Of a stretch of DNA of 24,000 bases, positions 3,361 through 18,316 are shown in pieces. The position numbers were made by a program, and so were the translations under genes. Origin of the DNA: Halorientalis salina. Lineage in GTDB: Archaea > Halobacteriota > Halobacteria > Halobacteriales > Haloarculaceae. Within the stretch, counting starts at the first letter, position 1. Each line of letters opens with the position of its first letter. The DNA is taken from contig NZ_SOSC01000010.1 of the NCBI RefSeq assembly GCF_005049285.1, forward strand, positions 69,662 to 93,661. The letters are read 5' to 3'. A model generated the notes under the pieces. The model made no database searches and was not told the origin of the DNA. It was given only the letters and a program-made list of their open reading frames with translations.

Positions 3361-3375
3361 CGCGACGGTACGCTC

Positions 3376-3888
3376 TCAGCCGGACGGGTACTCGTAATCG
3401 AGCGATACGTCCCGTTCGGCCTCGCCCGCGCGGAGCAGGCCGTTGATCTCGAGCGTGAACGATCCGTCCCTGATGGCGTCGCCTGCGGACTCGCCGAGGT
3501 CGGCGTAGTCGACGATGACGGTCATGGTCCGTCTCGCCGTTTCCCCCGGTTCCAGCGTGTTGATCGTCGGTTCCGACGTGACCGCCCGTGCGCCGTTGAT
3601 GAACACGTCGAATTCGCCCGACGGACTGGGAATCTCCTCGTCGGTCGGGTTCTCGACTTCGAGGATCACGTCCATGTCGGCGCTCCGGAGGCCGGCCTCG
3701 GGCTTTCGAACGTCGAAAATCGATATCTCGAGGTCGTCGATGGGCGGTGGCATCGGCGTCGGTGTCGCCGTCGCCGTCGCGCCCGGTTGCTCGTCGTCAC
3801 CGCCACCGGCTCCCGCGTCGTCGGTACAGCCCGCGAGTCCACCGACCGCGAGCCCGCCGACCGCCGTCAGTACTGACCGCCGATTCAT
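3376..3888 (-). CDS. secreted lipoprotein, LEA type-2 (LEA_2/WHy)-like domain
   Basis: N-terminus MNRRSVLTAVGGLAVGGLAGC has a Tat-like RR, a hydrophobic stretch and the lipobox LAGC. An Ala/Thr/Pro linker follows, then a beta-rich ~120-aa domain (DVILEVENPTDEEIP...FDVFINGARA...TMTVIVDY) resembling LEA_2 proteins. Confidence 0.75.
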   Translation of the reverse strand: MNRRSVLTAVGGLAVGGLAGCTDDAGAGGGDDEQPGATATATPTPMPPPIDDLEISIFDVRKPEAGLRSADMDVILEVENPTDEEIPSPSGEFDVFINGARAVTSEPTINTLEPGETARRTMTVIVDYADLGESAGDAIRDGSFTLEINGLLRAGEAERDVSLDYEYPSG

Positions 3889-3980
3889 CGTTCGCTAACG
3901 TGTCGGGCAGAAACGATAATCTTACGATAACGAACGGCGGAGCGCAACGCTCATCCGCCGGCCCGCCGGAGTGACGGGCG

Positions 3981-4784
3981 ATGCGTGCGTTCCGCGTCGC
4001 CTACGACGGTCGGCCGTTCCACGGCTTCCAGCGCCAGCCGGACGTCCCGACCGTCGAGGACGCCATCCTCGACGCGCTCCGTCGGCTCGACGTCCTCGCA
4101 GGCGACGACGTACCCGAGAACTACGCGGCCGCCGGCCGCACCGACGCCGGCGTCTCCGCGCTCGCCCAGACCGTCGCGTTCACGGCCCCCGAGTGGCTGA
4201 CGCCGGCCGCACTGAACAGCCAGCTCCCGGCCGCGGTCCGCGCGTGGGCTCACGCCGACGCTCCGACGGGATTCCACGCGACCCACGACGCGACCAGTCG
4301 CACCTACCGGTACCACCTCCACGCGCCAGCCGAGACCGTCGACGATGGGCGGGCAGGCAAGGGGTTCAATCGCCTCCGCGGCGAACACGACTTTCACAAC
4401 CTGACGCCCGACGAGACCGGAACGGTCCGGGCCCTCCAGGGGTCGCTCCGGCGCGACGGCGAGTACCTCGTGATCGAACTCACTGCTGGCGGGTTCGCGC
4501 GGCAACTCGTCCGCCGGGTCGTCTCCGTCGTCGCGGCGGTCGCTCGCGGCGACCGCGACCTCGACTTCCTCGACCGCGTGTTCTCGGCCGAGTCGCTGGC
4601 CGGCCCCGACGGGGTCCCGCCGGCACCGGCCGATCCGCTCCTGTTGGTCGACGTGACCTACCCGGACCTGACGTTCACCGTCGATACCGAGGCCCGGGAA
4701 AGCGCGAACGCGGTCTTCGCCGAGCGACGCGACGAACACCGGACCCGAGCGCGGGTGGCCGGTGACATCGCTGCCGAGCTGTGA
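3981..4784 (+). CDS. truA: tRNA pseudouridine(38-40) synthase
   Basis: MRAFRVAYDGRPFHGFQRQP... and the catalytic-Asp motif GRTDAGVSALAQTVAF are characteristic of TruA. Confidence 0.92.
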   Translation: MRAFRVAYDGRPFHGFQRQPDVPTVEDAILDALRRLDVLAGDDVPENYAAAGRTDAGVSALAQTVAFTAPEWLTPAALNSQLPAAVRAWAHADAPTGFHATHDATSRTYRYHLHAPAETVDDGRAGKGFNRLRGEHDFHNLTPDETGTVRALQGSLRRDGEYLVIELTAGGFARQLVRRVVSVVAAVARGDRDLDFLDRVFSAESLAGPDGVPPAPADPLLLVDVTYPDLTFTVDTEARESANAVFAERRDEHRTRARVAGDIAAEL

Positions 4785-4797
4785 GAAGCAGGGCCGG

Positions 4798-4953
4798 TTA
4801 TTCCATCTCGTCGAGCGAAACGACGGTGTCGGACTGGAGCCAGCGGCTAGTGTCTTCTCGGTCGTAGACCACCAGGGCGTCCCGGGTGGTAAACTGGCGG
4901 TATCGGCCGGGCGAGGGCGTCCGGTCGGTGGATCGTCGTTCAGGGCGTGTCAT
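4798..4953 (-). CDS. small conserved-looking haloarchaeal protein, hypothetical
   Basis: ORF 4798..5004 (GTG). The C-terminal segment DALVVYDREDTSRWLQSDTVVSLDEME resembles a motif I recall from small haloarchaeal proteins; the family name is not certain. Start could be ATG 4953 or GTG 5004. Confidence 0.5.
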   Translation of the reverse strand: MTRPERRSTDRTPSPGRYRQFTTRDALVVYDREDTSRWLQSDTVVSLDEME

Positions 4954-5105
4954 CGTCTCTCTCCACTCGCCGTTTGGACCCGGATGGTGGTATAGGTATG
5001 ACACGTTATCCGATGTTTTCGGCCGTTTCGAGCGGTTTCAGGCGTCTTTCGACGGTTCAACCAGCGTAAAGAGTGTGAACGATACGGTCCGAGAGCGGCG
5101 ACGGG

Positions 5106-6962
5106 TCAGACAGGGGCGACCATGTCCATGGCCTCCCGCACCGACTCGCGCTGGCCCAGAATCGTGATCCGGTCACCGAGTTCCAGCGCCATGTCCGGTT
5201 CGGGGACCTCGATGCCGTCGTCGTGGTCGACCAGGGCGATGAGACAGTCCTCGGGGAGTTCGAGGCGGAGTTCCCGGACGGTGTAGTCGGCGAACCGCTC
5301 GGCCGTGAGTTCGACCTCCTGGACGTCGCCGACGCGGTCCAGATCGGTCATCCAGTGGGCCATGGCGGGCCGTTCGATCTGGTTGTCGATGGCCCAGGCG
5401 GTCGCCATGCTCGCGTCGATGGTTCGCACGCCGAGGTCCTCGAAGGCGTCGACGTTGTCGGGGTTGTTCACCCGTGCGATGACGGTCTCGACGTCGAACT
5501 TCGAGTTCGAGAGTTGCGCGATGAGCAGGTTCGCGTCGTCGTTGCCGGTCGCGGCGATGATCGTTTTGGCGTTGGCACCACCGGCCTCACTGAGGACCTC
5601 CGTGTCGGTGCCGTCACCCCAGACGACCGAGTACCCGTCGTTTCGTGTTCGTTCGACCATTGCCTCTTCCGTTTCGATGATGACGACGTTCTCGCCTCGA
5701 TCTTCGAGGCGTTCGGCGAGCGACCGACCCACTCGTCCGCCGCCAACGATGATGACTCTCATTGGTATCACATCCAGGTATTCCGCGATTTTGCGCGCGA
5801 AGCCGCCCTCGAAGGCGACCGTCGCGAAGATGACCAGAAAGACCGTCCCGACGAGCACCTGGGCCTGCTCGTCCAGCCCCTGGGCCTGCATCTCCACGGC
5901 GAACAGCGTCGCGACCGAGGCCGGAATGATGCCCCGCGGGCCGACGAAGCTCATGAACAGTTTCTCGCTGGTCTTGAACCGGTCGCCCCAGGTCGAGACG
6001 AAGACGAGCACCGGCCGGATGATCAGCATGATCACGGCGACGACGGCCAGTCCGGGTACCCCCAGTTGGAGGAGGTCCTCGAACTCCAGCAGCGCCGCCA
6101 GCGCGATGAAGACGATAGAAAGCACCAGCAACGTGATGTCGCCTTTGAACGCCGCGATTTCGTCCTCGTAGGGGAGGTCGGCGTTCCCGAGCAAGAGCCC
6201 GGCCGTCGCGACGGCCGCGACACCGGCCTCCGTCCTGATGGTATCGGCCGCGGCGAAGGCGACGAGCGCGCCCGCGAGCGTGAGCAGCCGTGCGCTCTGT
6301 GGCGCGTTGCCGGGTGAGAGGTCGACGTACCTGATGAGGTAGTAGATCACGGCGGCGACGACGACGCCGACGAGCAGTCCGATACCCAGGCGCGTGGCGA
6401 ACGCCTCGACGAACGACACTTCCGCCTCGTTTCGGAGGACGATGACCTTGAAGACGACGACGGCGATGATCGCCGCACTCACGTCGTTGATGATCCCCTC
6501 GGTCTCCAGGGCGGTCGCCACCCGGTCGCGGACGGGGACGACCTCCAGGATCGGCGTGACGACCGTCGGTCCCGTCGCGACCAGGAGGGCACCGATGAGA
6601 AAGGACATGTCCCAGGGTTGATCGAGCGCGAAGTGGACGACCACTGCAGTCCCGCCCAGTGCGATCGCGGCTCCCACCGTCACCAGCCTGAGCGTGGCCG
6701 CCGGTGCCGCCTTGACGCGATCGATGCGGAGGTGAAAGGCCCCCTCGAAGACGATGATCGCGACCGAGAGACCGACGATCGCGGGCAGCGCTGGCCCGAA
6801 CGACTCCCGCGTGACCAGGCCCAACCCCTCGGGACCGAGGGCGACGCCCGCGGTCAGGAGGAAGATGATACTGGGCACGCGAAAGCGCGCGGCCAACAGC
6901 TGTGCCCCGACGCCGATTCCGATTATCGCTGCAACCAGTGGAATTATCGCACTACTGGCCAC
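5106..6962 (-). CDS. cation:proton antiporter (Na+/H+ exchanger family) fused to a C-terminal RCK module (TrkA-N + TrkA-C)
   Basis: About 400 aa of multi-TM exchanger sequence, then MRVIIVGGGRVGRSLAERLEDRG (Rossmann GxGxxG, TrkA-N) and a TrkA-C-like end (GDRITILGQRESV). The ORF track starts at GTG 7049, but those first 29 aa (MYRGAESGRTDCECLNH...) look non-native. I favour GTG 6962 (VASSAIIPLVAAIIG). Confidence 0.88.
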   Translation of the reverse strand: MASSAIIPLVAAIIGIGVGAQLLAARFRVPSIIFLLTAGVALGPEGLGLVTRESFGPALPAIVGLSVAIIVFEGAFHLRIDRVKAAPAATLRLVTVGAAIALGGTAVVVHFALDQPWDMSFLIGALLVATGPTVVTPILEVVPVRDRVATALETEGIINDVSAAIIAVVVFKVIVLRNEAEVSFVEAFATRLGIGLLVGVVVAAVIYYLIRYVDLSPGNAPQSARLLTLAGALVAFAAADTIRTEAGVAAVATAGLLLGNADLPYEDEIAAFKGDITLLVLSIVFIALAALLEFEDLLQLGVPGLAVVAVIMLIIRPVLVFVSTWGDRFKTSEKLFMSFVGPRGIIPASVATLFAVEMQAQGLDEQAQVLVGTVFLVIFATVAFEGGFARKIAEYLDVIPMRVIIVGGGRVGRSLAERLEDRGENVVIIETEEAMVERTRNDGYSVVWGDGTDTEVLSEAGGANAKTIIAATGNDDANLLIAQLSNSKFDVETVIARVNNPDNVDAFEDLGVRTIDASMATAWAIDNQIERPAMAHWMTDLDRVGDVQEVELTAERFADYTVRELRLELPEDCLIALVDHDDGIEVPEPDMALELGDRITILGQRESVREAMDMVAPV

Positions 6963-7103
6963 ACCCGATCCTCCATACACCGGACCCAATGAACGGCTGT
7001 GATTTAAACACTCACAATCCGTCCTGCCGCTCTCTGCCCCGCGATACACTCGACCAGCGAGGACGGAGCGCGTTCACTATCGACGATGATAATGCAACCC
7101 TGA

Positions 7104-7113
7104 AGTATATACT
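7104..7113 (+). promoter_or_regulatory. TATA-like perfect palindrome AGTATATACT upstream of the soluble transducer gene
   Basis: AT-rich palindrome centred ~22-28 bp upstream of the ATGs at 7131 and 7137. GAGGTGAGG (Shine-Dalgarno-like) lies at 7122-7130. Confidence 0.45.
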
Positions 7114-7130
7114 GTTCTGGTGAGGTGAGG

Positions 7131-8795
7131 ATGGTAATGAGTAGCATGAGGCGAATAACTCGGTTCGTTCACTCGTCTCGTCTCGCCGCGTTGGTTCGGT
7201 CCGACACCGACGACCACTCGGAGACGGACGCGACGACCACTGGCGAACCGGACACGGGGGGAACCGACAGAGAGCGGACGACTTCGGAGGACGGCTCGGA
7301 CCAGATGGCGCTGGAGACGACCGATGACGAGGGTGCGGGGGAGACGAATTCCACGTCGTCACCCGTCGGGACAGGCAGCGACCACACGCCAGTCGCCTCG
7401 GACGGCGGGACACACACGGTCGACGCGGCAGCCGCGTCGACCACGTCGTCGCTGGAAGCCACAGCCCGCGACTTCCGCGACGCCATGGCGGCCGCGGCGG
7501 ACGGCGACATCAGTCAGCGCCTGGACACGGACCGGGACAACGACGCGATGGCGGAGGCCGCGTCGGCGTTCAACGAGATGATGACGCATTTCACCGACAC
7601 CGTCGGGGAGTTAGAGGAGTTCGCCGAGGACGTCGACGACGCGACCGAGGAGATGAGCGCCGCCACCCGCGAAGTCAAGGAAGCCAGCGAAGAGGTCAGC
7701 GGGTCGATGGACCAGATCTCGAACAACGCCTCGAAGCAGGACGACCACCTCCAGGAGGTCGCCGACGAGATGACGGACCTCTCGGCGACCGTCGAGGAGA
7801 TCGCCTCCTCGGCCTCGGAGGTCGCCAGTATCTCCAGGGACGCCGCGGAGTTCGGGCAGGAAGGCCGCGACGCCGCCGAGAAGGCCGTCGATCGGATGGA
7901 CGAGATCGAAACGACGGCCGACGACACCATCGAGCAGGTCGAACACCTCGAAGAGCACATCTCCGAGATCAACGAGGTCGTCGAAGTGATCGACGAGATC
8001 GCCGATCAGACCTCGATTCTGGCACTGAACGCCTCGATCGAGGCGGCGCGAGCGGGCGAGGCCGGCGAGGGGTTCGCCGTCGTCGCCGACGAGGTCAAGC
8101 AGTTGGCCGAGGAGGCCAGCCAGGCGACCGAGGATATCAGCGAGATGATCACGGACGTCCAGGACGAGACGACGGCGACGGTCACGGAGATCCGCGAGAT
8201 GGGAGAGCACGTCTCGGAGGGGACGGACACCGTCGAGGAGGCGCTCGAAGCGCTCGACGCTATCGCGGACCGCGTCGAGGACGCCAACGACGGCGTCCAG
8301 TCGATCAACGAGGCCACCAACGAACAGGCGGGGAGTACCGAGGAGGTCGTCGCACTCGTCGAGGAGGTCGCCGACCTCAGCGAGCGGACGGCCGACGAAA
8401 CGCGCGAGGTGTCGGCCTCGGCAGAGGAACAGACCGCCGCACTAACCGAAGTGGCGGCCAACATGGACGGGATCGCCGACCAGGCGACTACCCTCACCAC
8501 GCTGCTCGACGACTTCGAGCGACGCGACGGGGACGGCGGCGACGACGACGATCTCGCCTGGGACGATGCGATGGTTCACGACGGTGACGACGAGGAGGAC
8601 GCCGCGGAAGAGACAGCAGCAGACAGCGACGAGGACGACGACCTCGCCTGGGACGACGCGATGGTTCACGACGGCGACGACGGCGGCGCTGGCGACGAGG
8701 ACGGGACGGGCGGAGAAACGACGGATGCGGACAGCGGCTCCGACGAGGAAGAAGAGATCTCCTGGGACGACGCGAAAGTCCACGACGGGAGTTGA
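7131..8795 (+). CDS. soluble (cytoplasmic) methyl-accepting chemotaxis transducer (Htr-type) with repeat-bearing acidic C-terminal tail
   Basis: Canonical MCP signalling hairpin [40 protein letters not shown] and a HAMP-like segment GDISQRLDTDRDNDAMAEAASAFNEMM. I see no hydrophobic TM segment. The first ~110 aa are Thr/Asp/Gly/Ser-rich low complexity. Start ambiguous: GTG 7125, ATG 7131/7137/7146 or ATG 7305. Confidence 0.9.
   Translation: MVMSSMRRITRFVHSSRLAALVRSDTDDHSETDATTTGEPDTGGTDRERTTSEDGSDQMALETTDDEGAGETNSTSSPVGTGSDHTPVASDGGTHTVDAAAASTTSSLEATARDFRDAMAAAADGDISQRLDTDRDNDAMAEAASAFNEMMTHFTDTVGELEEFAEDVDDATEEMSAATREVKEASEEVSGSMDQISNNASKQDDHLQEVADEMTDLSATVEEIASSASEVASISRDAAEFGQEGRDAAEKAVDRMDEIETTADDTIEQVEHLEEHISEINEVVEVIDEIADQTSILALNASIEAARAGEAGEGFAVVADEVKQLAEEASQATEDISEMITDVQDETTATVTEIREMGEHVSEGTDTVEEALEALDAIADRVEDANDGVQSINEATNEQAGSTEEVVALVEEVADLSERTADETREVSASAEEQTAALTEVAANMDGIADQATTLTTLLDDFERRDGDGGDDDDLAWDDAMVHDGDDEEDAAEETAADSDEDDDLAWDDAMVHDGDDGGAGDEDGTGGETTDADSGSDEEEEISWDDAKVHDGS
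8553..8789 (+). repeat. three copies of an 11-aa motif in the transducer tail: LAWDDAMVHDG (8553-8585), LAWDDAMVHDG (8643-8675), ISWDDAKVHDG (8757-8789)
   Basis: Read directly from the translation and DNA. Copies 1 and 2 are identical in protein and nearly identical in DNA. Each copy follows an Asp/Glu run. The third copy ends one residue before the C-terminus. Confidence 0.9.
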
Positions 8796-8850
8796 TCGAC
8801 GGACGGTCGTGGACAGACGTGAGCTATCAGGGATGAGAATCGCGGAGTAA

Positions 8851-8863
8851 TACTAATAATTAG
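8851..8863 (+). promoter_or_regulatory. AT-rich TATA-like element (tactaataattag) ~26 bp upstream of the first paralog ATG
   Basis: This is the only AT-rich block in the 8796-8882 spacer. The spacing fits a leaderless or near-leaderless haloarchaeal transcript. Confidence 0.45.
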
Positions 8864-8882
8864 TTGGGAGACAGACACACAC

Positions 8883-9281
8883 ATGCCGTACAAGTCCGGA
8901 GAGAGCTGGGAAGTGGACATCGACCAGGGAACGAACAGGCTGTACCTCGAACTCGACGGATACCTCGAGAGCGACGCGGCCGGTGCGGCGGCGGACGCGA
9001 CGATAGAAGGGGCAAAGAAGCTGGATGCGGGGTTCGACATGATCAACGACCTCTCGAACTTCCAGCCCTCCGACGAGGAGGCGATGAAACACATCGAGCG
9101 CGGGAAGAAAGGCATCGCCAAACACGACGTGGCCGCCGTCGTGCGCGTGACGTCCGAGTCGACGACGGGACAGATGCAGTTCGACCGCGCCGGCGAGGAC
9201 GAGGAGAGCTATCAGCTCGCGATGGCCGACTCCCAGGAGAAAGCCGAGAAGCTACTGGACAAGCGACGCGAACAAGCATGA
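8883..9281 (+). CDS. small acidic protein, paralog 1 of 4 (STAS/SpoIIAA-like layout, uncharacterised family)
   Basis: 132 aa. It shares the pattern W-x-V-x-I/T-D...NRLYL-x-L-x-G...GFD-x-IND-x-S-x-F-x-P...ERGK...RV-x-SESTTGQMQFDRAGE...YQLA...AEKLLD with the next two genes. Confidence 0.85.
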   Translation: MPYKSGESWEVDIDQGTNRLYLELDGYLESDAAGAAADATIEGAKKLDAGFDMINDLSNFQPSDEEAMKHIERGKKGIAKHDVAAVVRVTSESTTGQMQFDRAGEDEESYQLAMADSQEKAEKLLDKRREQA

Positions 9282-9349
9282 GAGAGACCCACTATCAACG
9301 GTGAAAAACGGCGAGGAACGCTTTTGACCGGTACCGCGATACTCGCCCT

Positions 9350-9727
9350 ATGGGCGACTGGAGCGTCGAAATCGACGAGGAGCGGAGTCGAATATACCTC
9401 ACGCTGTCGGGCTACCTGGAGCTATCGGAACACGAGAAGGTGGCCGACGCCGTGACAGAGGCCGCGATCGACATGGACGGCGGGTTCGACCTCGTCAACG
9501 ACATGTCGAGTTTCGAGCCGGCCAGCGAGGACGCGATGGCGGAGATCAAACGCGGGAAGCGCGGCCTCGCCGAGAACGGTATGGAGGCCGCCGTCCGCGT
9601 CGTCTCCGAATCGACGACCGGCCAGATGCAGTTCGACCGCGCCGGCGAGGGCGTCGAGAACTACCAGCTCGCAAAGGCGAACTCGATCGACGAGGCCGAG
9701 AAACTGCTGGACTCGCGGGGCGACTAG
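9350..9727 (+). CDS. small acidic protein, paralog 2 of 4
   Basis: 125 aa. By hand count, 79 of 125 ungapped positions are identical to paralog 3. It contains the identical 15-mer SESTTGQMQFDRAGE. Confidence 0.85.
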   Translation: MGDWSVEIDEERSRIYLTLSGYLELSEHEKVADAVTEAAIDMDGGFDLVNDMSSFEPASEDAMAEIKRGKRGLAENGMEAAVRVVSESTTGQMQFDRAGEGVENYQLAKANSIDEAEKLLDSRGD

Positions 9728-9802
9728 GGAGACCCAGTCGTCGGACAGTCGGCCCGGGACGGGCTGAAACACGTGAGCGATTCGATCACACGGAGAACAC
9801 AC

Positions 9803-10186
9803 ATGGGCACTTGGAACGTCGACACGGACGAGGAGAAGAACAGACTGTACCTATCCCTGGACGGGCACTTCGAGGTCGAGGAAGTGGCGGAAGCGGCGGA
9901 TGCGGTTATCGAGGCCGCGGAGCGACTCGACCCGGGGTTCGACGAGATCAACGACATGTCCGGGTTCGAGCCGGCCGACCAGGAAGCGATGGACCACATC
10001 GAACGGGGCAAACGCGGGATCACCGAAAACGGCGTCGCGGCCGTCTGTCGCGTCGTCTCCGAGTCGACGACGGGCCAGATGCAGTTCGACCGCGCCGGCG
10101 AAGGCGAGGAGGACTACCAGTTGGCGAAAACCGACTCCATCGAGAAAGCCGAGAAACTGCTCGACGCGCGCCGCGAGGACAACTGA
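9803..10186 (+). CDS. small acidic protein, paralog 3 of 4
   Basis: Internal ATG of ORF 9773..10186. MGTWNVDTDEEKNRLYL aligns with the N-termini MGDWSVEIDEE and MGQWSVDVDEE of paralogs 2 and 4. GGAG lies 8-11 nt upstream. Confidence 0.85.
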   Translation: MGTWNVDTDEEKNRLYLSLDGHFEVEEVAEAADAVIEAAERLDPGFDEINDMSGFEPADQEAMDHIERGKRGITENGVAAVCRVVSESTTGQMQFDRAGEGEEDYQLAKTDSIEKAEKLLDARREDN

Positions 10187-10263
10187 CCCCAGCGCGGACC
10201 CCGAATCGATCGATACCCAACAGTCTGCGAACATTCATTACGGAGTGCTTACATCACAGGGGT

Positions 10264-10635
10264 ATGGGACAGTGGAGTGTCGACGTCGACGAGGAGCGCA
10301 ACCGGTTGTACGCGGAGCTCTCGGGCTTTTTCGTGGAAGAAGAGGCGACGGAGTCGACCGAGGAGTTCATCGAGGCGGCCGAACGACTGGAGACGGGATT
10401 CGACATGATCCAGGACCTCGCGGAACTCCAGATCGGAGATCCGGGCGCGGCGGAGCAACTCGAACGCGGCAAGCGCCGGCTCGCGGAGAACGGACTGGCC
10501 ACCGTCGTCCGGATCCCGCCGACCGCCACGACGAGCGAACTGCAGTACGAGGAGTCTGGCGAGGACGCCGAGAACTACGAGATCAGGACCGCGTCGTCGG
10601 TCACGGAAGCCGAGACGATCCTCGACAACCAGTAA
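10264..10635 (+). CDS. small acidic protein, paralog 4 of 4 (most divergent)
   Basis: In frame within ORF 9811..10635. MGQWSVDVDEERNRLYAELSGFF...GFDMIQDLAELQ...ERGKRRLAENG keeps the family pattern. The conserved SESTTGQMQFDRAGE block is replaced by PTATTSELQYEESGE. Confidence 0.8.
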   Translation: MGQWSVDVDEERNRLYAELSGFFVEEEATESTEEFIEAAERLETGFDMIQDLAELQIGDPGAAEQLERGKRRLAENGLATVVRIPPTATTSELQYEESGEDAENYEIRTASSVTEAETILDNQ

Positions 10636-10666
10636 GACGGCGGACGGGGAACCGTCAGTCGCCGTC
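10636..10666. terminator. interrupted 12-bp hairpin at the convergent junction of paralog 4 and the MBL hydrolase gene
   Basis: GACGGCG (10636-10642) pairs with CGCCGTC (10660-10666). An inner GACGG (10643-10647) pairs with CCGTC (10652-10656) around a GGAA loop. It overlaps the stop of the minus-strand gene. No T-tract is present, so the function is uncertain. Confidence 0.3.
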
Positions 10667-11578
10667 GGCCCCGTCGCGCTCGTCGAGGTAGGTCAGGACA
10701 CCGCGGACGTTCATTCGTTCTTCGCCGCGAGCCTTGCGCTCGCCCCAGATGCCGATCATATCGGTCCGCTCGGCGAAGTGCTCGATGACAGCGTCGTCGT
10801 CGTCGAGTTCCTCGCGTTTCGTCGCGACGCGATCGACCCACTCGGCGATGGCGTCCGCGTACTCCTGGAGGCGGTCGTCGGTCCGCGCCGAGCCGAAGTG
10901 CCCGTAACAGAGTACCTCGGGGTCCAGTTCCCGGATCGTGTCTATGTCAGCGAGCACCTGCTCCAAGTCGAAGTTCGACGGGGGCGAGGTGTGCTGGATG
11001 AACGCCTCGCTGGGGACGTAGATGCCCGCCGCGTCGGCGACGAACACGATCGCGTCGTCGGGTTCTTCGAAGACGACCTGATGGGGTGCGTGTCCCGGCG
11101 CGTGGTGGACGCGCAGTTCGCGGTCCCCGAGGTCGATGACGTCACCGTCGGTGAGTTCGCGGATGCGGTCCTCGGGGATCGGTTCCGGGTCGGTGTAGAA
11201 CGCCCACTGGTCGCCGACGGCCGCTTTCGTCCCCTCGATCAGTCGCGAGGGGTCGACGAGGTGGCGCGCGCCGATCTCGTGGATGGCGACGGTCGCGTTC
11301 GGACAGGCCGCCGCGAGGTGGCCCGCACCGCCCGCGTGGTCGAGGTGGACGTGCGTGAGCGCGATGACATCGAGATCCGCCGGCGCGATGCCGACCTCGT
11401 CCATCGCATCGAGGATCCGCTCGTACTCGGTCCCGATACCCGAATCGATCAGTGCGGGCCGCTCCCCGTCGACGATGTACACCGAGCCGTACTCGGGGGC
11501 GTCGTACATCCCGGTGTCGACGTAGTAGACGTCCTGACAGTCGCCCTCGGTCACCTCGAACACGTCGCCGATTGCCAT
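10655..11578 (-). CDS. MBL-fold metallo-hydrolase
   Basis: THVHLDHAGG (HxHxDH motif) plus a downstream HAPGHAPH. Start taken at MAIGDVFEV, an internal ATG of ORF 10655..11914. The upstream 112 aa are Arg-rich and overlap grpE in antisense. Confidence 0.9.
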   Translation of the reverse strand: MAIGDVFEVTEGDCQDVYYVDTGMYDAPEYGSVYIVDGERPALIDSGIGTEYERILDAMDEVGIAPADLDVIALTHVHLDHAGGAGHLAAACPNATVAIHEIGARHLVDPSRLIEGTKAAVGDQWAFYTDPEPIPEDRIRELTDGDVIDLGDRELRVHHAPGHAPHQVVFEEPDDAIVFVADAAGIYVPSEAFIQHTSPPSNFDLEQVLADIDTIRELDPEVLCYGHFGSARTDDRLQEYADAIAEWVDRVATKREELDDDDAVIEHFAERTDMIGIWGERKARGEERMNVRGVLTYLDERDGADGD

Positions 11579-11658: not shown

Positions 11659-12240
11659 ATGCGAGAAGACGGGACAGCCGAACCCGACGGCGACGACGAC
11701 CGGGCCGACGAGGGTCTACCCGCGACATCGTCGATCGACGGCGCTGTCGGCGAGGAACTGACGCGACTGCGCGGCGAGATCGAGCAGCTATCGGTCGCGG
11801 TGGCGACCCTCCAGGAGGCCGACGAGGAGCGCGAACAGCGGCTCTCGGACCTCGAAACGCGCGTCGAGGACTACCAGCGGCGCGGCGAGCGCGAGCGCGA
11901 GCAACTGGCCGCACAGACGCTGGCCGACTTCGCCGACCGCATGCTGTCGGTCAAGGACAGCCTCGACAACGTCCTCGGGATGGCCGACCTGGACGAGGAC
12001 ACCGACCGACAGCTCTCGCTGGTCCGCAAACAGTTCGAGCAGTCCTTTACCGGCGGCGAGGTCGAGCGCATCCGCTCGGACGGCCAGTTCGACGCGAGCC
12101 GACACAAGATGGTCGAACGGGTGCCGGCCGACGACCGCGACGACGGCGAGATCGTCCGAGAACTCGACGCGGGCTATGCTCTGGGGGACCGCGTCCTCAG
12201 ACCGGCCCGCGTCGTGGTCGCGAAAGGCGACGGCTCCTGA
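11659..12240 (+). CDS. grpE: nucleotide exchange factor GrpE
   Basis: Acidic N-terminus, a long coiled-coil (LRGEIEQL...LETRVEDYQRRGEREREQL) and a C-terminal beta domain with GQFDASRHKMV (the FDPxxHxA-type motif) and GYALGDRVLRPARVVVAK. Confidence 0.85.
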   Translation: MREDGTAEPDGDDDRADEGLPATSSIDGAVGEELTRLRGEIEQLSVAVATLQEADEEREQRLSDLETRVEDYQRRGEREREQLAAQTLADFADRMLSVKDSLDNVLGMADLDEDTDRQLSLVRKQFEQSFTGGEVERIRSDGQFDASRHKMVERVPADDRDDGEIVRELDAGYALGDRVLRPARVVVAKGDGS

Positions 12241-12255
12241 CTCGTCGCCGAACGA

Positions 12256-13257
12256 TCAACCGCCAGCCAGATACCCGGCCAGTCCGCCGATGGCGACCGG
12301 GTAGACAAGCCCCATTATCAGAACTGCGCTGCCAAGGTCCGGCTGAATCGTGACGACGCCACCGGTCCCGCTGTACGAGAAGACGGTCATCGCGCCGAGG
12401 ACCGTGAGCGCGAGGTAGCCGACGGCGATCGTCGCGCCGGCCCGGGCGCTGTCGAACCGGGAGACGGGTTCGTCCATCGACGCTCGCGAGGCGAGTATCA
12501 TCCCGAACAGCAAGAGGAGCACTGCCGGGACGACGTAGTAGGCGATTTTCGGCACTATCGGGTCCAGCGTGGCGCTGTAGGCCTCTTCGACGAAGTTTAT
12601 CGACTCGTCACCGGCCGAGTCCGTAGTCTGGACTCCGTGTGCCGAGTAGAAGAACCAGCCGAACAGCGCGACCAGCGCATCGACCGAGTCCTCCACCGGA
12701 AGCACGCCCAGCCCGTCGCTGTCCTCCACTTCCAGGAGGACGAAGGCGGAGATGACGACGAAACTGATGAGATACGAGAACAGCCCGTAAATGACGCCGC
12801 CGACGATGGGCAGGTCCGAGAGCAGACTCGTGGCCGTTCCGGTCGTCTGCTGGTTGCCGCCCTGACGCGTGCCGCCACCGCGCTGGGCTCCCTGGCCCTG
12901 TCGCTGGTGACCGCCGGGCTGACTGCCCTGCGTCGGTTGCTGGTAATTGCCGGACTGACCACCCTGGCCCGGTTGCTGCTGACCGCCCTGCGTCGGTTGT
13001 TGCCGGCCGCCCTGCGTCGGTTGCTGTGGACCGCCACCGGATTGCTGGGGTTGGCCCCCGCCGACACTGACGGGTTGCCCGGACTCCTGGGTCCCCGATC
13101 CGGGCTGTTGGGGCGGTGTCTGGCCGGTCCCGTGTTCGTCGCCCTGGGTCGGTTGCGTGCCCTGTCCACCCTGCTCGTCCTGTGACAGCGTCACGCCACA
13201 CTCGGGACACTGCCGGTTCTGTGCGGACACCTCGGTCCCGCACGACGGACAGTACAT
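12256..13257 (-). CDS. zinc-ribbon membrane protein with a long Gln/Gly/Pro-rich low-complexity domain
   Basis: N-terminal MYCPSCGTEVSAQNRQCPECG (CxxC-x11-CxxC zinc ribbon). A Q/G/P/T-rich region of ~115 aa follows, with reiterated QQPTQGG units, then a C-terminal domain with several hydrophobic TM segments. Confidence 0.85.
   Translation of the reverse strand: MYCPSCGTEVSAQNRQCPECGVTLSQDEQGGQGTQPTQGDEHGTGQTPPQQPGSGTQESGQPVSVGGGQPQQSGGGPQQPTQGGRQQPTQGGQQQPGQGGQSGNYQQPTQGSQPGGHQRQGQGAQRGGGTRQGGNQQTTGTATSLLSDLPIVGGVIYGLFSYLISFVVISAFVLLEVEDSDGLGVLPVEDSVDALVALFGWFFYSAHGVQTTDSAGDESINFVEEAYSATLDPIVPKIAYYVVPAVLLLLFGMILASRASMDEPVSRFDSARAGATIAVGYLALTVLGAMTVFSYSGTGGVVTIQPDLGSAVLIMGLVYPVAIGGLAGYLAGG
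12838..13182 (-). repeat. Q/G/P-rich low-complexity coding region with imperfect reiterated units (QQPTQGG; DNA unit gccctgcgtcggttg on the + strand occurs 3 times)
   Basis: Read directly from the translation (aa 26-140 of the zinc-ribbon protein) and from the DNA. Confidence 0.85.
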
Positions 13258-13326: not shown

Positions 13327-14928
13327 TCAGGACCCGACCTGTGCCGTATCGCTGCCGTCGTCGGGCGAGGTGCCGGTGACGTTCTGTTCGACGGTGAGCG
13401 AGCCCTCGGCGTCGCCGTCGATGTCTTCGGCCGTCACGTGGAGAATGCCGTCGTCGTCGATCCGGAAGGTCACCTCGATGGTCGGGTCGCCGGCCGGGGC
13501 CTCCGGGATGCCGGTGAGCGTGAACTCGTCCAACTTCTCGTTCTCGCGAGCCGTTTCGTGTTCGCCCTGAAACACGTCGATGGCCATGATCGTCTGGTCG
13601 TCGCGGGTCGTCGTGTAGTACTTCGTCCCCGTCGCTTCCGTGATGGGCGTCCCCTTCTCGATCAAGACGTTGAAGCTGCCGTCCTTGACGCGGGTGCCCA
13701 GCGAGCGTGTGACGATGCTTTTGACCGTGATCTCGCCGCGTTCCTCGACTTTCTCGGCGTGATCCGCTGCCCCGTGTGCGTCGTCGACGTGGTTCTGGAA
13801 CGCCTCGCGGGCGTCGAAGGTCTCGCCGCAGGTGCAAGCGTACTGCTCCTCGACGGCCCCGCTCTTCTCGGCGTACAGCGCCGCCCCCTTCGCGACGATC
13901 TTGTCCGGTTCGAAGGTCAGTTCGGGATCGACGCCGGTGTAGTCGGCGACGCGTTCCTGGATGGCCGGCATCCGCGTCGACCCGCCCACCAGCAAGACGG
14001 TGTCGACGTCGCGGGTCGTGCGGTCGGCGTCGTCGAGCGCCTGTTCCAGCGGGGCCAGGGCTCGTTCCCGGAGGTCCTCCGTGATCGACTCGAAGGTGTC
14101 GCGGGTCAGCGTCTCCTCGACGTCGACGATCTCGCCGTCGACCTGGCCGAGTAGCGGTTCGATGAGTTCTGTCTCCGCGGCGGTCGAGAGGTCGATCTTC
14201 GCGCTCTCGCCGAGCGAGCGGAGGTTCGCCCGGAGTTCGTCCGCGGCCAGGACGTCGATGCCCCGGTCCCCCTCGATCCGGTCGGCGACGTGTTCGACGA
14301 TCGCCTCGTCGAAGTCGGTGCCGCCGAGGTGGTTGTCGCCACTGGTCGTCAGGATGGTGAAGGTGTCGTCGGCGATCTCCAGAACGGAGACGTCGAGCGT
14401 GCCGCCGCCGAAGTCGTAGACCACGAGCGTCTCCTCGTCGAGGCCGGCGTCGTAGCCGTGGGCGATGGCCGCCGCGGTCGGTTCGTTCAGGAGCGTGATC
14501 TCGTCGAAGCCGGCCAGTTCGGCTGCCCGTCGGGTCGCCTTCTTCTGGTCTGCGGTGAAGTAGGCCGGGACGGTGACGACGGCTCTCGTGACTTCCTCAC
14601 CGAGATAGGACTCGGCGTCAGCCTTGAGTTTCCGGAGGATCTCGGCGGAGATCTCGGCGGGGTCGTAGGACTCGCCGTCGATCTCGACGCCGTCACCCGT
14701 GCCGATGTGGCGCTTGATGGTTCTGATCGTTCGGTCGGGATTGGCGGGGGCGCGGTTCTCGGCGCGCCGGCCGACCACCGGGTCCCCGTCGTCGTCGAAG
14801 CTGACGACCGACGGCGTCAGCGGCTCGCCCTCGTTGTTCTGTAACATCTGGACGTCGTCGCCCTCGATGAGCGCCATGCCGCTGTTGGTCGTCCCGAGAT
14901 CGATCCCCAGGGCCTTCTCACTGACCAT
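13327..14928 (-). CDS. Hsp70/DnaK-family ATPase paralog, lid-less, with a zinc-finger-like insertion between the NBD and SBD
   Basis: MVSEKALGIDLGTTNS, VTVPAYF, NEPTAAAIAHG, DFGGGTLDVS and LVGGSTRMPAIQ are Hsp70 NBD motifs. IPEAPAGDPTIEVTFRIDDDGILHVTAED is the SBD-beta signature. The protein ends shortly after SBD-beta, at 533 aa from ATG 14928, with no helical lid or EEVD-like tail. AGGTG lies 11 nt upstream of the ATG. Confidence 0.9.
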   Translation of the reverse strand: MVSEKALGIDLGTTNSGMALIEGDDVQMLQNNEGEPLTPSVVSFDDDGDPVVGRRAENRAPANPDRTIRTIKRHIGTGDGVEIDGESYDPAEISAEILRKLKADAESYLGEEVTRAVVTVPAYFTADQKKATRRAAELAGFDEITLLNEPTAAAIAHGYDAGLDEETLVVYDFGGGTLDVSVLEIADDTFTILTTSGDNHLGGTDFDEAIVEHVADRIEGDRGIDVLAADELRANLRSLGESAKIDLSTAAETELIEPLLGQVDGEIVDVEETLTRDTFESITEDLRERALAPLEQALDDADRTTRDVDTVLLVGGSTRMPAIQERVADYTGVDPELTFEPDKIVAKGAALYAEKSGAVEEQYACTCGETFDAREAFQNHVDDAHGAADHAEKVEERGEITVKSIVTRSLGTRVKDGSFNVLIEKGTPITEATGTKYYTTTRDDQTIMAIDVFQGEHETARENEKLDEFTLTGIPEAPAGDPTIEVTFRIDDDGILHVTAEDIDGDAEGSLTVEQNVTGTSPDDGSDTAQVGS

Positions 14929-14991
14929 CTCGACTACACCTGCCTCGCCGCGGCATATCACGCTTTCGCCCGATGTGAGCGACGAAGCCGG

Positions 14992-17208
14992 TCAATCGTC
15001 GCCTCCGGAGGGTACCGCCTGTATCTTCTCGTCGCCCGCGTCGATCTCGAAGGCGGCGAGCATCTCCTGGAGTTCTCGGGTCCGCTCGGCCAGGCTCGCC
15101 GCCGAGTCCGACACCTGGCTGATCGAGCTGCTGGCCTCCTCGGAGGCGGCGGCGACGGTCTCGGCCTGCTGGGTGGTCTCCTCGGAGACGCTGGCGATCT
15201 CGTCGACCATCCGGACGATCTGCTGGGCAGAGTCGGCCTGTTCGTCGGTGGCGTCGTTGATGCTCTTGAGGCCGCCGTCGACGCTGTCGACCCCGTCGAC
15301 GATCGCTTCGAGCGAGTCGGTCAGGTCCTCGACGGTCTCGGTCCCCTCGGTGATGCGGGACTCGGCTTCGCGGATGTCCTCGGCGCTGGCCGTCGCCCGG
15401 TCCTGGACCGACGAGATGGTCGTCTCGATCTCGTCGACCGCCCGCTGGGTCTCCTCGGAGAGTTCCTTGACCTCCTCGGCGACGACCGCGAACCCGGAGC
15501 CGGACTCGCCGGCGCGGGCGGCCTCGATGTTGGCGTTCAGCGCCAGAATCGAGGTCTGCTCGGCGATCTCGTCGATCAGACGAGTCACCTCGCTGATCTC
15601 GTCGATCTCGTCGGTGAGCCGCTCGATCGACTCGACTACGTTGCCCGTCTGTGCCTCGATGGACTGCATCTCCTCGATGGTCGCCTCGGCCTGCTCGCGG
15701 CCCTCGGCACCGAGTTCGGCCACCCTGTCGGACTGGCTGGCGACCTCGTCGGTCGTCGAGGCCACCTCCTCGATGGTCGCCGAGAGGTCGTTGACCTCGT
15801 CACCCGTCGCCTGCAGGTCCTCGGTCTGTTCCTGTGCGCCCGTCGAGATTCCCTGGATGGAGCGGCTGACCTCCTCGCTTGCCTCCTTGACCTCGCCGGC
15901 GCTGTCCTCGACGTCGTGACTCGACGCGGCGACGTCCTCGGCGAACTGCTGGACGTCGGCGACGGTCCGTTCGAGGTCGGCGATCATCTCGTTGAACGAG
16001 TCGGCGATCGACTGCATCGCATCACTGTCGGTTTCGGGGTCGAGCCGCCGGGTGAGGTCGCCGTCCGCACAGGCCGCCATCGTCTCGCTGTAGCGTTCGG
16101 CCTCGGCTTCGAGCTGCTCGTTGAACCGCTGGGTCTCGAGTTCGCGCTGTTCGGCCTCCTCGCGTGCGCGTTCGGCCTCGGCTCTCGCGTCGTCGGCTTC
16201 GGCCAGGGACTCCTTGAGCGAGTCGCGCATCGCGCCGAACTCCCCGTAGAGCATCCCGACCTCGTCGGTGCGGTCGGTCTCCAGTTCGACGTCCAGGTTC
16301 CCCTCGCCGATCTCGCTGGCCCGATCCGCGAGCTGGCGCAGCGCCAGTGCGAGGTTGCCACCGATGGTGATCCCGAACACGCCGAGGTTCAGGGCGATGA
16401 CGTACAGGAGCGCGACGAGCCCCGCCGTCGCGGTGTTCCGGTCAGTGTACACCACGTCGCTCGGCGCGTACGTCACGACCTGCCAGTTCGTGTCGGCCAC
16501 GCCCGCCCCCGTCGTCGCGAACTCGGACCCGTCGACGGTCGTCGTCTCGATGCCCTCGTCGCCGGCCAGGTCCGCCGCGCCCGTGGCGTTCCACGCCGTC
16601 GACCCGGATGCGGCCACTGGGGTTCCGTCGACCACGAGCGCCGTCGCGTAGCCGTCGTCCGCGATCCGGGACTGCAGGGACGCCGTCGAGGCGTCCACGA
16701 CGATCGCGCGGTCCGCGTCGACCGCCGCCACGAACGGCACGACCGTCGCGTCACCGCTCACGGCCGCCCGCGGCGTGCCCGCGACCGCCTCGCCGTCGCC
16801 GGCGTCACCGACCGCGACCGTCTCGCCCGTCGCGTCGCTCGCCGAACTCGACAGTATCTCGCCGCTCGTCCGGTCGACGTAGTGGACCGCGGCGACGCGA
16901 TCGGCCCCTGCCGCCCGGTCGAGTCGATCCGCGATCCGGTCGGTATCGCCGCTCTCGACGGCGCTCGACGTCGCGACGCCGGTGGCGAGTGCCTCGTTCG
17001 AGTCGGCCCACAGCGCCGTGACGTTGGCACCGTCGCTCGCGTGGTCGGTGAAGGCCGCGTCCGCCGACTGCCCGAGTTCGCCGGCAACGTTACCGTAAAA
17101 AAAGGCGGTCGAGACCAGCGTGATCAGGAAGACCACGCTGAGCGTGACCACCATCTTCAGGCTGTAGCTCGACCTGACCCGATCCAGTACGTTCGTATCG
17201 AAGTTCAT
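14992..17208 (-). CDS. membrane-bound methyl-accepting transducer (HtrII-like: TM1, ~220-aa extracellular Cache-like domain, TM2, HAMP, MCP signalling domain)
   Basis: TM1 [23 protein letters not shown] and TM2 [33 protein letters not shown] segments ([26 protein letters not shown], and [26 protein letters not shown]) and the MCP core [40 protein letters not shown]. Confidence 0.93.
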
Positions 17209-17335
17209 GTGTCCTCACTTCCGGGCCGCATACCCCGTGTGAATCGTACCCGAACGATGCCAGTCGTCTCGGTAAAACCTGACGGGCGGATTATTAGATC
17301 CGATAACAAACCACTTCGAGGTTGATTACGCATCG

Positions 17336-18215: not shown

Positions 18216-18316
18216 CGCTCCCTCTTCTCATACATGATATTGCCACCCACGGACGGGACGGCGCCAACGGGCCAGAGCGACACGGTTTTGCCACGCCACG
18301 GCAAACCGACTGCCAA

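Follow-up and report, generated by a model that had tools for sequence, protein, structure and literature searches.

A tandem array of paralogs with a predicted STAS fold encoded downstream of a sensor-less transducer gene in Halorientalis

The locus analysed here raises the question of what a series of small, related proteins does directly downstream of a taxis transducer gene, and whether it has a role in taxis at all. In the window (the whole 24-kb stretch of Halorientalis salina DNA that was analysed) the four paralogous open reading frames, which an earlier note on this DNA had described as repeating with a regular period of about 460 bp, are all present on the plus strand and encode proteins of 123–132 residues (Table 1). 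The four DNA copies, each of 300 nt and with 60–72% identity, are spaced by 452, 453 and 461 bp, i.e. they form a four-fold repeat that is far beyond chance. The encoded proteins are 40–66% identical to one another, with identities to paralog 1 in the four-way alignment of 55, 66 and 41% for paralogs 2, 3 and 4, respectively. The common motif blocks described previously are apparent as 31 invariant columns, including the W, the R-x-Y of N/S-R-L/I-Y, GFD, RGK and the A-E-x-x-L-D tail, and an earlier hand count of 79 identical residues between paralogs 2 and 3 proved exact (79 of 123 aligned positions). Paralog 4, already singled out as divergent, is the outlier; its largest difference lies in the SESTTGQMQFDRAGE block, where it has PPTATTSELQYEESGE, and it belongs to a diverged, basal subgroup in which the β4-α3 block is altered. 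Paralog 2 is 100% identical to the H. salina protein P0004, and the subgroup of paralog 3 takes in the single Halovenus copy as well as the last gene of the other arrays.

Table 1. Coordinates of the transducer gene, the paralog array and the associated elements in the window
Feature	Position	Strand	Details
Palindromic element TATCGacgaTGATA	7078-7091	+	~59 nt upstream of Htr ATG
TATA-like TATATAC of Htr	~7107-7113	+	-30 to -24 from ATG
Cytoplasmic sensor-less Htr/MCP	7137-8795	+	Pfam PF00015, weak HAMP match, ortholog alignment
C-terminal DDL(A/S)WDDAxVHDG repeats of Htr (three)	8547-8585, 8637-8675, 8751-8789	+	within 8547-8789
Paralog 1 promoter region	8824-8863	+	element CTATCAgggaTGAGAA 8824-8839; AT-rich TATA-like box TAATACTAATAATTAG 8848-8863 (-35 to -20 from ATG)
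STAS-like paralog 1	8883-9281	+	132 aa; orthologous to copy 1 of both H. brevis and H. marina
Paralog 2 promoter region	9292-9327	+	element CTATCAacggTGAAAA 9292-9307; TATA-like GCTTTTGA 9320-9327
STAS-like paralog 2	9350-9727	+	125 aa; sequence used for AF2 model
STAS-like paralog 3	9803-10186	+	127 aa; alternative upstream GTG at 9773
STAS-like paralog 4	10264-10635	+	123 aa; ortholog is H. marina copy 3

The array genes have orthologs in at least nine other genomes or MAGs, and their dN/dS values of 0.12–0.51 (0.12 for paralog 1 compared with H. brevis and 0.30 for paralog 4) indicate purifying selection; on both grounds they are real genes. The GC-rich DNA of haloarchaea does yield many spurious long open reading frames, and one degraded STAS-like copy exists in Halorientalis sp. 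LUM.68 (L005, 9949 onward), so that an annotation artefact, comprising non-coding frames or decaying duplicates, has to be considered. This explanation is, however, effectively refuted, and we give it hardly any credence, by the 99 close homologs of conserved length, by dN/dS values below 0.55 for all four genes, by a confidently predicted fold and by the presence of orthologous subgroups in the same order across species. At least five such subgroups are discernible and their order is conserved, which together with the evidence for purifying selection implies that the array is old and maintained. An Rfam scan of positions 6900–10900 identified no RNA family.

The AF2 model of paralog 2 (pLDDT 89.5, pTM 0.85) has the β-β-α-β-α-β-α-β-α topology found in STAS proteins (E3-9, E14-21, H25-42, E46-55, H60-75, E78-85, H89-99, E106-110 and H113-124). 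When it was compared with the PDB using Foldseek, the 14 matches at E <= 1e-3 were STAS proteins without exception, as were nearly all of the top 50; these matches include SpoIIAA (1tid/1h4y), RsbV (6m36), RsbS (6jhk), SiaC (6kko), SLC26 STAS domains and DUF3478. The top query TM-score (0.71, at 10% identity) was obtained with a DUF3478 structure, 2q3l; 2ook scored 0.68, the identities to these two DUF3478 structures being 10–15%, and 1tid_B, 1h4y, 6m36 and 4hyl gave 0.6–0.69. The confident topology and the identity of the top matches thus support the proposal, made initially from the sequence, of a STAS/SpoIIAA-like fold. At the sequence level, none of the four window proteins matches PF01740, PF13466 or PF11964 at E <= 1, and none reaches the PF11964 gathering threshold (25 bits). 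Consistent with the initial view that no characterised family could be recognised, Pfam, NCBIfam and PADLOC scans and a PDB sequence search gave no match, the PDB sequence hits from the narrow and wide profiles being rejected as noise (antibody VH 'DxxKNxLYL' and PDZ7). The few marginal Pfam matches in the wider family are mostly to the STAS clan, which is matched by only 6 of 134 members (best E 4.4e-4), with two of the 134 matching PF11964 (E >= 0.0023); a distant two-domain relative, P0108, reaches 41.5 bits for PF11964 (SpoIIAA-like, formerly DUF3478), above the gathering score. Alignment of the wide profile with an approximate Bacillus subtilis SpoIIAA sequence by hhalign was marginal, with E = 0.005 and a probability of 7%. 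The model predicts that the four genes encode single-domain STAS-fold proteins, of a family that is absent from domain libraries.

SpoIIAA and RsbV (PF01740) resemble the paralogs in fold, size and topology, whereas the paralogs have no HMM match, no DSSG motif, no kinase or phosphatase gene nearby and a host without sigma factors, which archaea are not known to have. These comparisons bear on the possibility that the paralogs belong to a classical phosphorylation-dependent partner switch, whose RsbW/SpoIIAB-type kinase and PP2C phosphatase would be the products of genes at other sites and whose output would be something other than the transducer. By Foldseek E-value, anti-sigma antagonists are indeed the best fold match; one relative carries a PilZ domain fusion, recalling the links of SiaC and HsbA to c-di-GMP signalling; and Ser or Thr occupies the helix α2 N-cap in 76 of 134 wider family members (S in 52, T in 24), with Asp in a further 21, making S, T or D in 97. 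In the window the N-cap residue, which we equate with Ser58 of SpoIIAA to within one residue, as the hhalign alignment did not fix the register there, is D, S, D and D in paralogs 1–4, Ser59 of paralog 2 being the only Ser. In the Halorientalis clade, however, Asp predominates here, with 32 of 50 sequences, against 9 with Ser. As the earlier note had observed, a phosphorylatable Ser in a D-S-S-G motif at the N terminus of helix α2 is absent from the four paralogs, and no gene for a HATPase_c anti-sigma kinase or a PP2C phosphatase was found in the 24-kb window or adjoining the approximately 20 related loci inspected. Ser, Thr and Asp are, moreover, simply the residues that are generally preferred at helix N-caps. 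Because this preference is generic and the loci have no linked gene for a kinase or phosphatase, we demoted the interpretation of the N-cap residue as a phosphorylatable Ser, and a classical partner switch appears improbable.

The gene directly upstream of the array encodes, as had been recognised, a taxis transducer (Htr), with an MCP signalling domain (PF00015, E = 5.8e-46); its open reading frame opens at GTG 7125, with ATG 7137 aligning with the starts of orthologs, which are present in all Halorientalis loci (53–65% identity). A conserved N terminus of 15 residues is followed by about 100 residues that are non-conserved, acidic and disordered, by a HAMP-like segment and by the signalling domain; neither a TM segment nor a sensor domain was detected by Pfam scan and ortholog alignment. 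The last of the three C-terminal repeats ends two codons short of the stop. Exactly three of these repeats are present in 8 of 8 Htr orthologs examined, with none in the second Htr of the window or in the Htr of the H. marina locus L021. Covariation of repeat number with STAS copy number was rejected, since there are always 3 repeats versus 2–5 copies. A database search with a profile of the 87-residue Htr tail returned 3 fragments only, the candidates being swamped by acidic low-complexity sequences.

The expanded array is restricted to Halorientalis and close relatives, with 2–5 copies per genome, and always lies downstream of one cytoplasmic sensor-less Htr. The window shares the gene order NhaP/TrkA(-), Htr(+), two to five STAS-like genes(+), MBL(-) with 9 other loci, which represent at least 7 species or MAGs. 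Genes for GrpE and DnaK are also located near the array in the window. Adjacency alone is weak evidence, because the syntenic arrays belong for the most part to a single genus and one closely related MAG, in which the flanking genes are conserved too. A second, independent adjacency occurs in H. marina (L021), where a different sensor-less Htr, which has HAMP, MCPsignal and a TM hairpin, is preceded at a distance of 160 bp by the singleton P0059.

A cis-element links the two types of gene further. The sequence TATCG-N4-CGATAAT, followed after about 11 nt by TATATA/TATTTAT, precedes the orthologous Htr gene at all 10 loci, and a palindrome of the form TATC(G/A)-N4-(C/T)GA(T/A)A is common to Htr and most of the STAS-like genes, lying upstream of their promoters. 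Searching 218 kb of haloarchaeal loci with TATC[AG]-N4-[CT]GA[AT]A gave 43 strand-hits, compared with 0.63 in shuffles (for shuffles of the window, the expected number is 0.01); nearly all of the hits precede the start codon of an Htr or STAS-like gene by 57–59 nt. The palindrome is also present at unlinked STAS-like copies, i.e. in Halovenus (with one mismatch) and at L019/L021; the L024 singleton is without it, and only degenerate versions precede paralogs 3 and 4 in the window. The second Htr gene of the window is preceded by the palindrome in H. salina and H. brevis only and lacks it in the pallida group, for which reason the idea that it is an element of all Htr promoters was dropped. From these sequence patterns, each array gene seems to have a leaderless-type promoter of its own, and the presence of the same palindrome at Htr and most STAS-like genes makes it probable that they are activated jointly by one regulator.

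Beyond Halorientalis, the wider family comprises 924 cluster representatives at 50% identity from bacteria and haloarchaea, most of which are orphan bacterial singletons without a chemoreceptor nearby; at the inspected loci the bacterial homologs have unrelated neighbours, with metabolic genes adjoining. No Htr is present near the haloarchaeal singletons at the three loci in Halovenus, L019 and L024, and a metagenome locus scan yielded one contig only, of 1.5 kb. The earlier note had asked whether the family is always next to an MCP, and had taken wide occurrence without transducer linkage to count against its proposal. The wider family is indeed broad and without transducer linkage, which counts in part against that proposal; only the expanded array, at every locus, and one dispersed H. 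marina copy are Htr-linked.

The wider distribution is of relevance to an alternative in which the paralogs are DUF3478/SpoIIAA-like carriers of small molecules or hydrophobic ligands, or general stress proteins, with no role in taxis, the adjacency to Htr being synteny inherited within one genus. DUF3478 proteins have been proposed as carriers of hydrophobic compounds (PMC2954197). The PF11964 SpoIIAA-like proteins (2ook, 2q3l), which are of unknown function, give the best structural superposition and, like the paralogs, are stand-alone proteins of about 120 residues; the orphan bacterial singletons beside metabolic genes, the three haloarchaeal loci without Htr and the GrpE and DnaK genes near the array would likewise fit a carrier or stress role. 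Unlike the window array, however, PF11964 proteins have no link to transducers, and the window proteins have no match to that HMM. The restriction of the palindrome to Htr and STAS-like genes, with almost none elsewhere in the 218 kb, and the independent adjacency in H. marina to a different sensor-less Htr also argue against inherited synteny, and we consider this alternative unlikely, albeit one to be taken seriously.

The preferred reading is that the paralogs serve as protein-interaction modules of the STAS type, subject to co-regulation with taxis transducers and acting as their input or modulator subunits, which would have been recruited to taxis in Halorientalis; we judge the prospects of this being correct to be about even. 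A STAS-only protein with a role in chemotaxis has precedent in CheS of Sinorhizobium meliloti and Agrobacterium fabrum, which binds CheA and changes the handling of CheY (PMC12654446). Like CheS, the paralogs are small, with a predicted single-domain STAS fold, are encoded with chemotaxis genes and lack an enzymatic motif; they would also have its mode of action, protein binding, in common. The gene for CheS, however, is present in one copy and forms part of a bacterial che operon that also contains cheA and cheY, whereas the array consists of 2–5 paralogs by a transducer gene in an archaeon; no che genes, including cheA, cheY and cheW, are present in the 24-kb window, the only transducer genes nearby being that upstream of the array and a second on the minus strand (14992-17208). 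The earlier view that this is not a described arrangement therefore needs qualification: STAS-only chemotaxis proteins were already known, but an array of paralogs beside an archaeal transducer gene differs from them.

In haloarchaea, a transducer gene typically forms a pair with the gene for its receptor partner, as in htrI-sopI, htrII-sopII, basT-basB and cosT-cosB of Halobacterium salinarum. By analogy, the window locus may likewise place a non-sensing transducer gene beside that of a putative signal-delivering protein. The H. salinarum partners are sensory rhodopsins or substrate-binding lipoproteins and the Htrs are membrane-bound, whereas here the Htr is cytoplasmic and its neighbours are predicted to be soluble STAS-fold paralogs.

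In terms of mechanism, recruitment of the STAS-like family to taxis signalling in Halorientalis would have given an ancient, subfunctionalised array of 2–5 paralogs, acting, by analogy with SpoIIAA/RsbV, SiaC and CheS, through reversible protein–protein binding. The conserved α2/β4-α3 face (ERGK...VRVxSESTTGQMQFDRAGE) is a candidate docking surface, the target of which may be the transducer, possibly its C-terminal repeats, or the CheA/CheW core. The variable α1 helix and β3-α2 loop could confer a separate input or specificity on each paralog, so that the paralogs would provide or modulate the input to a receptor without a sensor of its own. Whereas the genes, their paralogy, purifying selection, fold and synteny, the common cis-element and the sensor-less nature of the Htr are results of the analysis, the physical interaction, the sensing role and the co-regulation are inferred. 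Much as CheR and CheB are brought to bacterial receptors by the NWETF tether, the paralogs might be interchangeable cytoplasmic sensor or adaptor subunits that dock on the three WDDAxVHDG peptides to provide combinatorial inputs, under a single palindrome-binding regulator of a transducer/STAS regulon. In this specific form the proposal is a long shot; if true, it would give one archaeal chemoreceptor combinatorial, transcriptionally co-regulated inputs.

Whatever their function, the paralogs belong to a sizeable STAS-clan family that is not covered by current domain databases, and two sequence features are new, namely the triple WDDAxVHDG repeat at the Htr C terminus and the promoter palindrome TATCG-N4-CGATA. 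The STAS-fold paralogs, which are coupled to such a transducer genetically and, it appears, in transcription, provide a concrete, testable candidate for the input or modulator layer of cytoplasmic archaeal transducers that have no sensor domain. If the proposed role is correct, the partner-binding logic of STAS proteins would extend from the control of bacterial sigma factors, c-di-GMP and CheA to archaeal taxis.

The tandem array of four paralogous genes, which the earlier note had placed beside a taxis transducer, is confirmed, and the factual statements made about it all hold on checking the ORFs, the alignment, the DNA repeat and the upstream gene, which encodes a transducer (Htr) with an MCP signalling domain. 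Paralogs 2, 3 and 4 have 55, 66 and 41% protein identity with paralog 1, 79 residues are identical between paralogs 2 and 3, as counted previously, and 31 columns are invariant in the full-length alignment of all four; the DNA repeat period is 452-461 bp, with copies 60-72% identical. The dN/dS ratios of the array genes (0.12-0.51) are approximate, because dS is close to saturation. The GC content of the window (~0.65) and its acidic encoded proteins are haloarchaeal in character, and a Halorientalis salina protein, P0004, matches paralog 2 with 100% identity.

Coordinates of the array, its transducers, the palindromic elements and neighbouring features
Feature	Position	Sequence	Strand	Remark
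Palindrome of Htr gene	7078-7091	window		~58 nt upstream of start codon
Htr	7137-8795	window	+	upstream of array
Htr repeats DDL(A/S)WDDAxVHDG	8547-8585, 8637-8675, 8751-8789	window		acidic linkers between
Further palindrome copies	8824-8839, 9292-9307	window		upstream of STAS-like starts, TATA-like box after
Paralog 1	8883-9281	window	+	ORF
Paralog 2	9350-9727	window	+	ORF
Paralog 3	9803-10186	window	+	ORF
Paralog 4	10264-10635	window	+	ORF
HSP70/DnaK-like gene	13327-14961	window	-	544 aa
Gene next to the HSP70/DnaK-like gene	11659-12240	window	+	
Gene next to the HSP70/DnaK-like gene	12256-13257	window	-	
Second Htr	14992-17208	window	-	membrane-bound
Palindrome of second Htr	17293-17306	window	-	2 mismatches
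Palindrome of second Htr	14434-14447	L001 (H. brevis)		exact
TCTCA-N4-TGATA	18226-18239	window		one mismatch
TCTCA-N4-TGATA	15375-15388	L001 (H. brevis)		one mismatch
Array-copy remnant	~9949-10300	L005 (Halorientalis sp. LUM.68)		HMM match positions 18-125
STAS-like singleton P0059	6001-6378	L021 (H. marina CP095487)		downstream of DUF6149 gene; L022 likewise
Htr adjoining the singleton	6540-8216	L021 (H. marina CP095487)		
Htr	3371-5038	L018		
Htr	4160-5887	L020		

None of the four paralogs was recognised by Pfam, NCBIfam or PADLOC at E <= 1, and searches of PDB sequences with family profiles returned only noise. An AlphaFold2 model of paralog 2, made with an input alignment of 50 sequences, is confident (pLDDT 89.5, pTM 0.85) and has the topology b-b-a-b-a-b-a-b-a; its Foldseek matches in the PDB are almost exclusively STAS proteins, including SpoIIAA (1tid, 1h4y), RsbV (6m36), RsbS (6jhk), SiaC (6kko), the anti-sigma antagonists 4xs5, 4hyl and 4qtp, and SLC26 STAS domains. 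The predicted fold thus supports the STAS/SpoIIAA-like assignment proposed earlier, including its DUF3478 flavour. The top query TM-scores are those of DUF3478 structures (2q3l, 0.71; 2ook, 0.68), and the main rival to a function in taxis is a DUF3478-like ligand carrier role unrelated to it (PMC2954197). Marginal STAS, STAS_2 or SpoIIAA-like matches were found in only 6 of 134 diverse relatives, and one two-domain relative, P0108, exceeds the PF11964 threshold; in sequence the family lies outside current Pfam models and forms an uncatalogued STAS-superfamily branch.

A word-indexed search gave 99 close homologs, those with a named organism all being from Halorientalis, Halovenus or Haloarculaceae MAGs and the rest metagenome proteins. 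An exhaustive profile search extended the family to 924 cluster representatives at E <= 1e-3 (409 at E <= 1e-10), with named members in Chloroflexi, Delta- and Betaproteobacteria and Clostridia MAGs. Most members are ~120 aa long, a few consist of two domains in tandem, and one is a PilZ fusion. The distant relatives P0204, P0108, P0122 and P0168 are of these PilZ (c-di-GMP-binding) fused or tandem two-domain types. In five bacterial or metagenomic contexts, all orphan singletons, we observed no recurrent neighbour, MCP, kinase or phosphatase.

The gene order NhaP/TrkA antiporter (-), soluble Htr (+), two to five STAS-like genes (+) and MBL-fold gene (-) is present in the window and at nine other loci, i.e. 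those of H. brevis, H. marina, H. persicus, H. regularis, two H. pallida strains, LUM.68, a Haloarculaceae MAG and a metagenome contig. In a neighbour-joining tree the array genes fall into at least five orthologous subgroups, whose order along the array is conserved, and each of the four window copies has orthologs in other species. These results point to an old array with differential loss of copies and not to a recent amplification. A degraded copy persists in the LUM.68 array, which is evidence of copy turnover; this remnant lacks its N-terminus, and its reading frame continues antisense to the MBL gene. Beyond the array in the window, a short HSP70/DnaK-like gene with a Cys/His-rich insert (YACTCGETFDAREAFQNHVDDAH) adjoins grpE and a gene for a zinc-ribbon membrane protein with a Q/G-rich linker.

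Orthologs of the array-linked Htr begin with a common 15-aa N-terminus. Next come ~100 aa of acidic sequence that is not conserved, then a HAMP-like segment and the signalling domain; neither a TM segment nor a sensor domain was detectable. Exactly three DDLSWDDAxVHDG repeats end all eight of the eight orthologs examined, the last at the extreme C-terminus, an arrangement reminiscent of the pentapeptide tether at the C-terminus of bacterial receptors. These repeats are lacking in the window's second Htr.

An extra H. marina member, P0059, lies at a separate chromosomal site, 160 bp upstream of another sensor-less Htr, which has a TM hairpin, HAMP and an MCPsignal domain (direct hmmscan E = 7.7e-41, with 4.7e-45 for the Htr of L018). 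The orthologous metagenome locus L019 has the STAS-like gene and lacks the Htr, and no Htr lies beside the singletons of Halovenus and L024. In the haloarchaeal branch, transducer linkage thus recurs without being obligatory, and in bacteria it is absent.

Most array spacers carry CTATCA-N4-TGA(A/G)AA(C/T), which begins 57-59 nt ahead of the ATG, and then a TATA-like box at about -32 to -24. This layout implies that each array gene probably has a separate leaderless-type promoter; only the last gene of the pallida, persicus and regularis arrays departs from it, lying just 3 nt after its neighbour. In 10 of 10 loci the Htr gene has the perfectly palindromic form at this distance, TATCG-N4-CGATAAT, followed by ~11 nt and TATATA. 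Copies of the consensus, TATC(G/A)-N4-(C/T)GA(T/A)A, occur in L001-L009 and L018-L022 besides the window; the unlinked singletons of L019, L021 and L022 are preceded by TATCA-N4-TGATA and that of Halovenus also by the element, which is absent from the more divergent L024. A strict pattern gave 43 strand-hits in 218 kb of haloarchaeal loci, compared with 0.63 in shuffles, almost all upstream of Htr or STAS-like genes. Synonymous sites have reached saturation between the paralogs, so that a non-coding motif which is still conserved implies selection, and on the simplest reading the palindrome would be bound by a common transcription factor, making it a candidate binding site of a shared regulator. 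Palindromes also lie ~100 nt before the ATG of the second Htr in the window and in H. brevis, and the pallida-group orthologs of this Htr are without TATCG-N4-CGATAAT. In the same two loci, a copy of the palindrome with one mismatch, TCTCA-N4-TGATA, lies ~90 nt upstream of the region coding for seryl-tRNA synthetase.

The most conserved blocks of the paralogs, ERGK in a2 and VRVxSESTTGQMQFDRAGE across b4-a3, coincide with what we take to be the canonical STAS partner-binding face, as mapped from the SpoIIAA-SpoIIAB complex; helix a1 and the b3-a2 loop differ between paralogs. The STAS-only proteins characterised so far, SpoIIAA/RsbV, SiaC and CheS, switch binding partners, CheS doing so with CheA (PMC12654446). 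The paralogs may bind one common partner, either Htr (possibly via its C-terminal repeats) or the CheA/CheW core, and each would have a distinct input or specificity. Phosphoregulation at the a2 N-cap, a position equivalent to SpoIIAA Ser58 to within one residue, where 57% of the wide family have S or T and the Halorientalis clade mostly D, is a minority hypothesis, since S, T and D commonly cap helices in general and no kinase or phosphatase genes are linked to the family loci. The family expanded next to a sensor-less Htr with which the array is apparently co-regulated, and a functional link of the STAS-like array to taxis is plausible, the balance being an even one.
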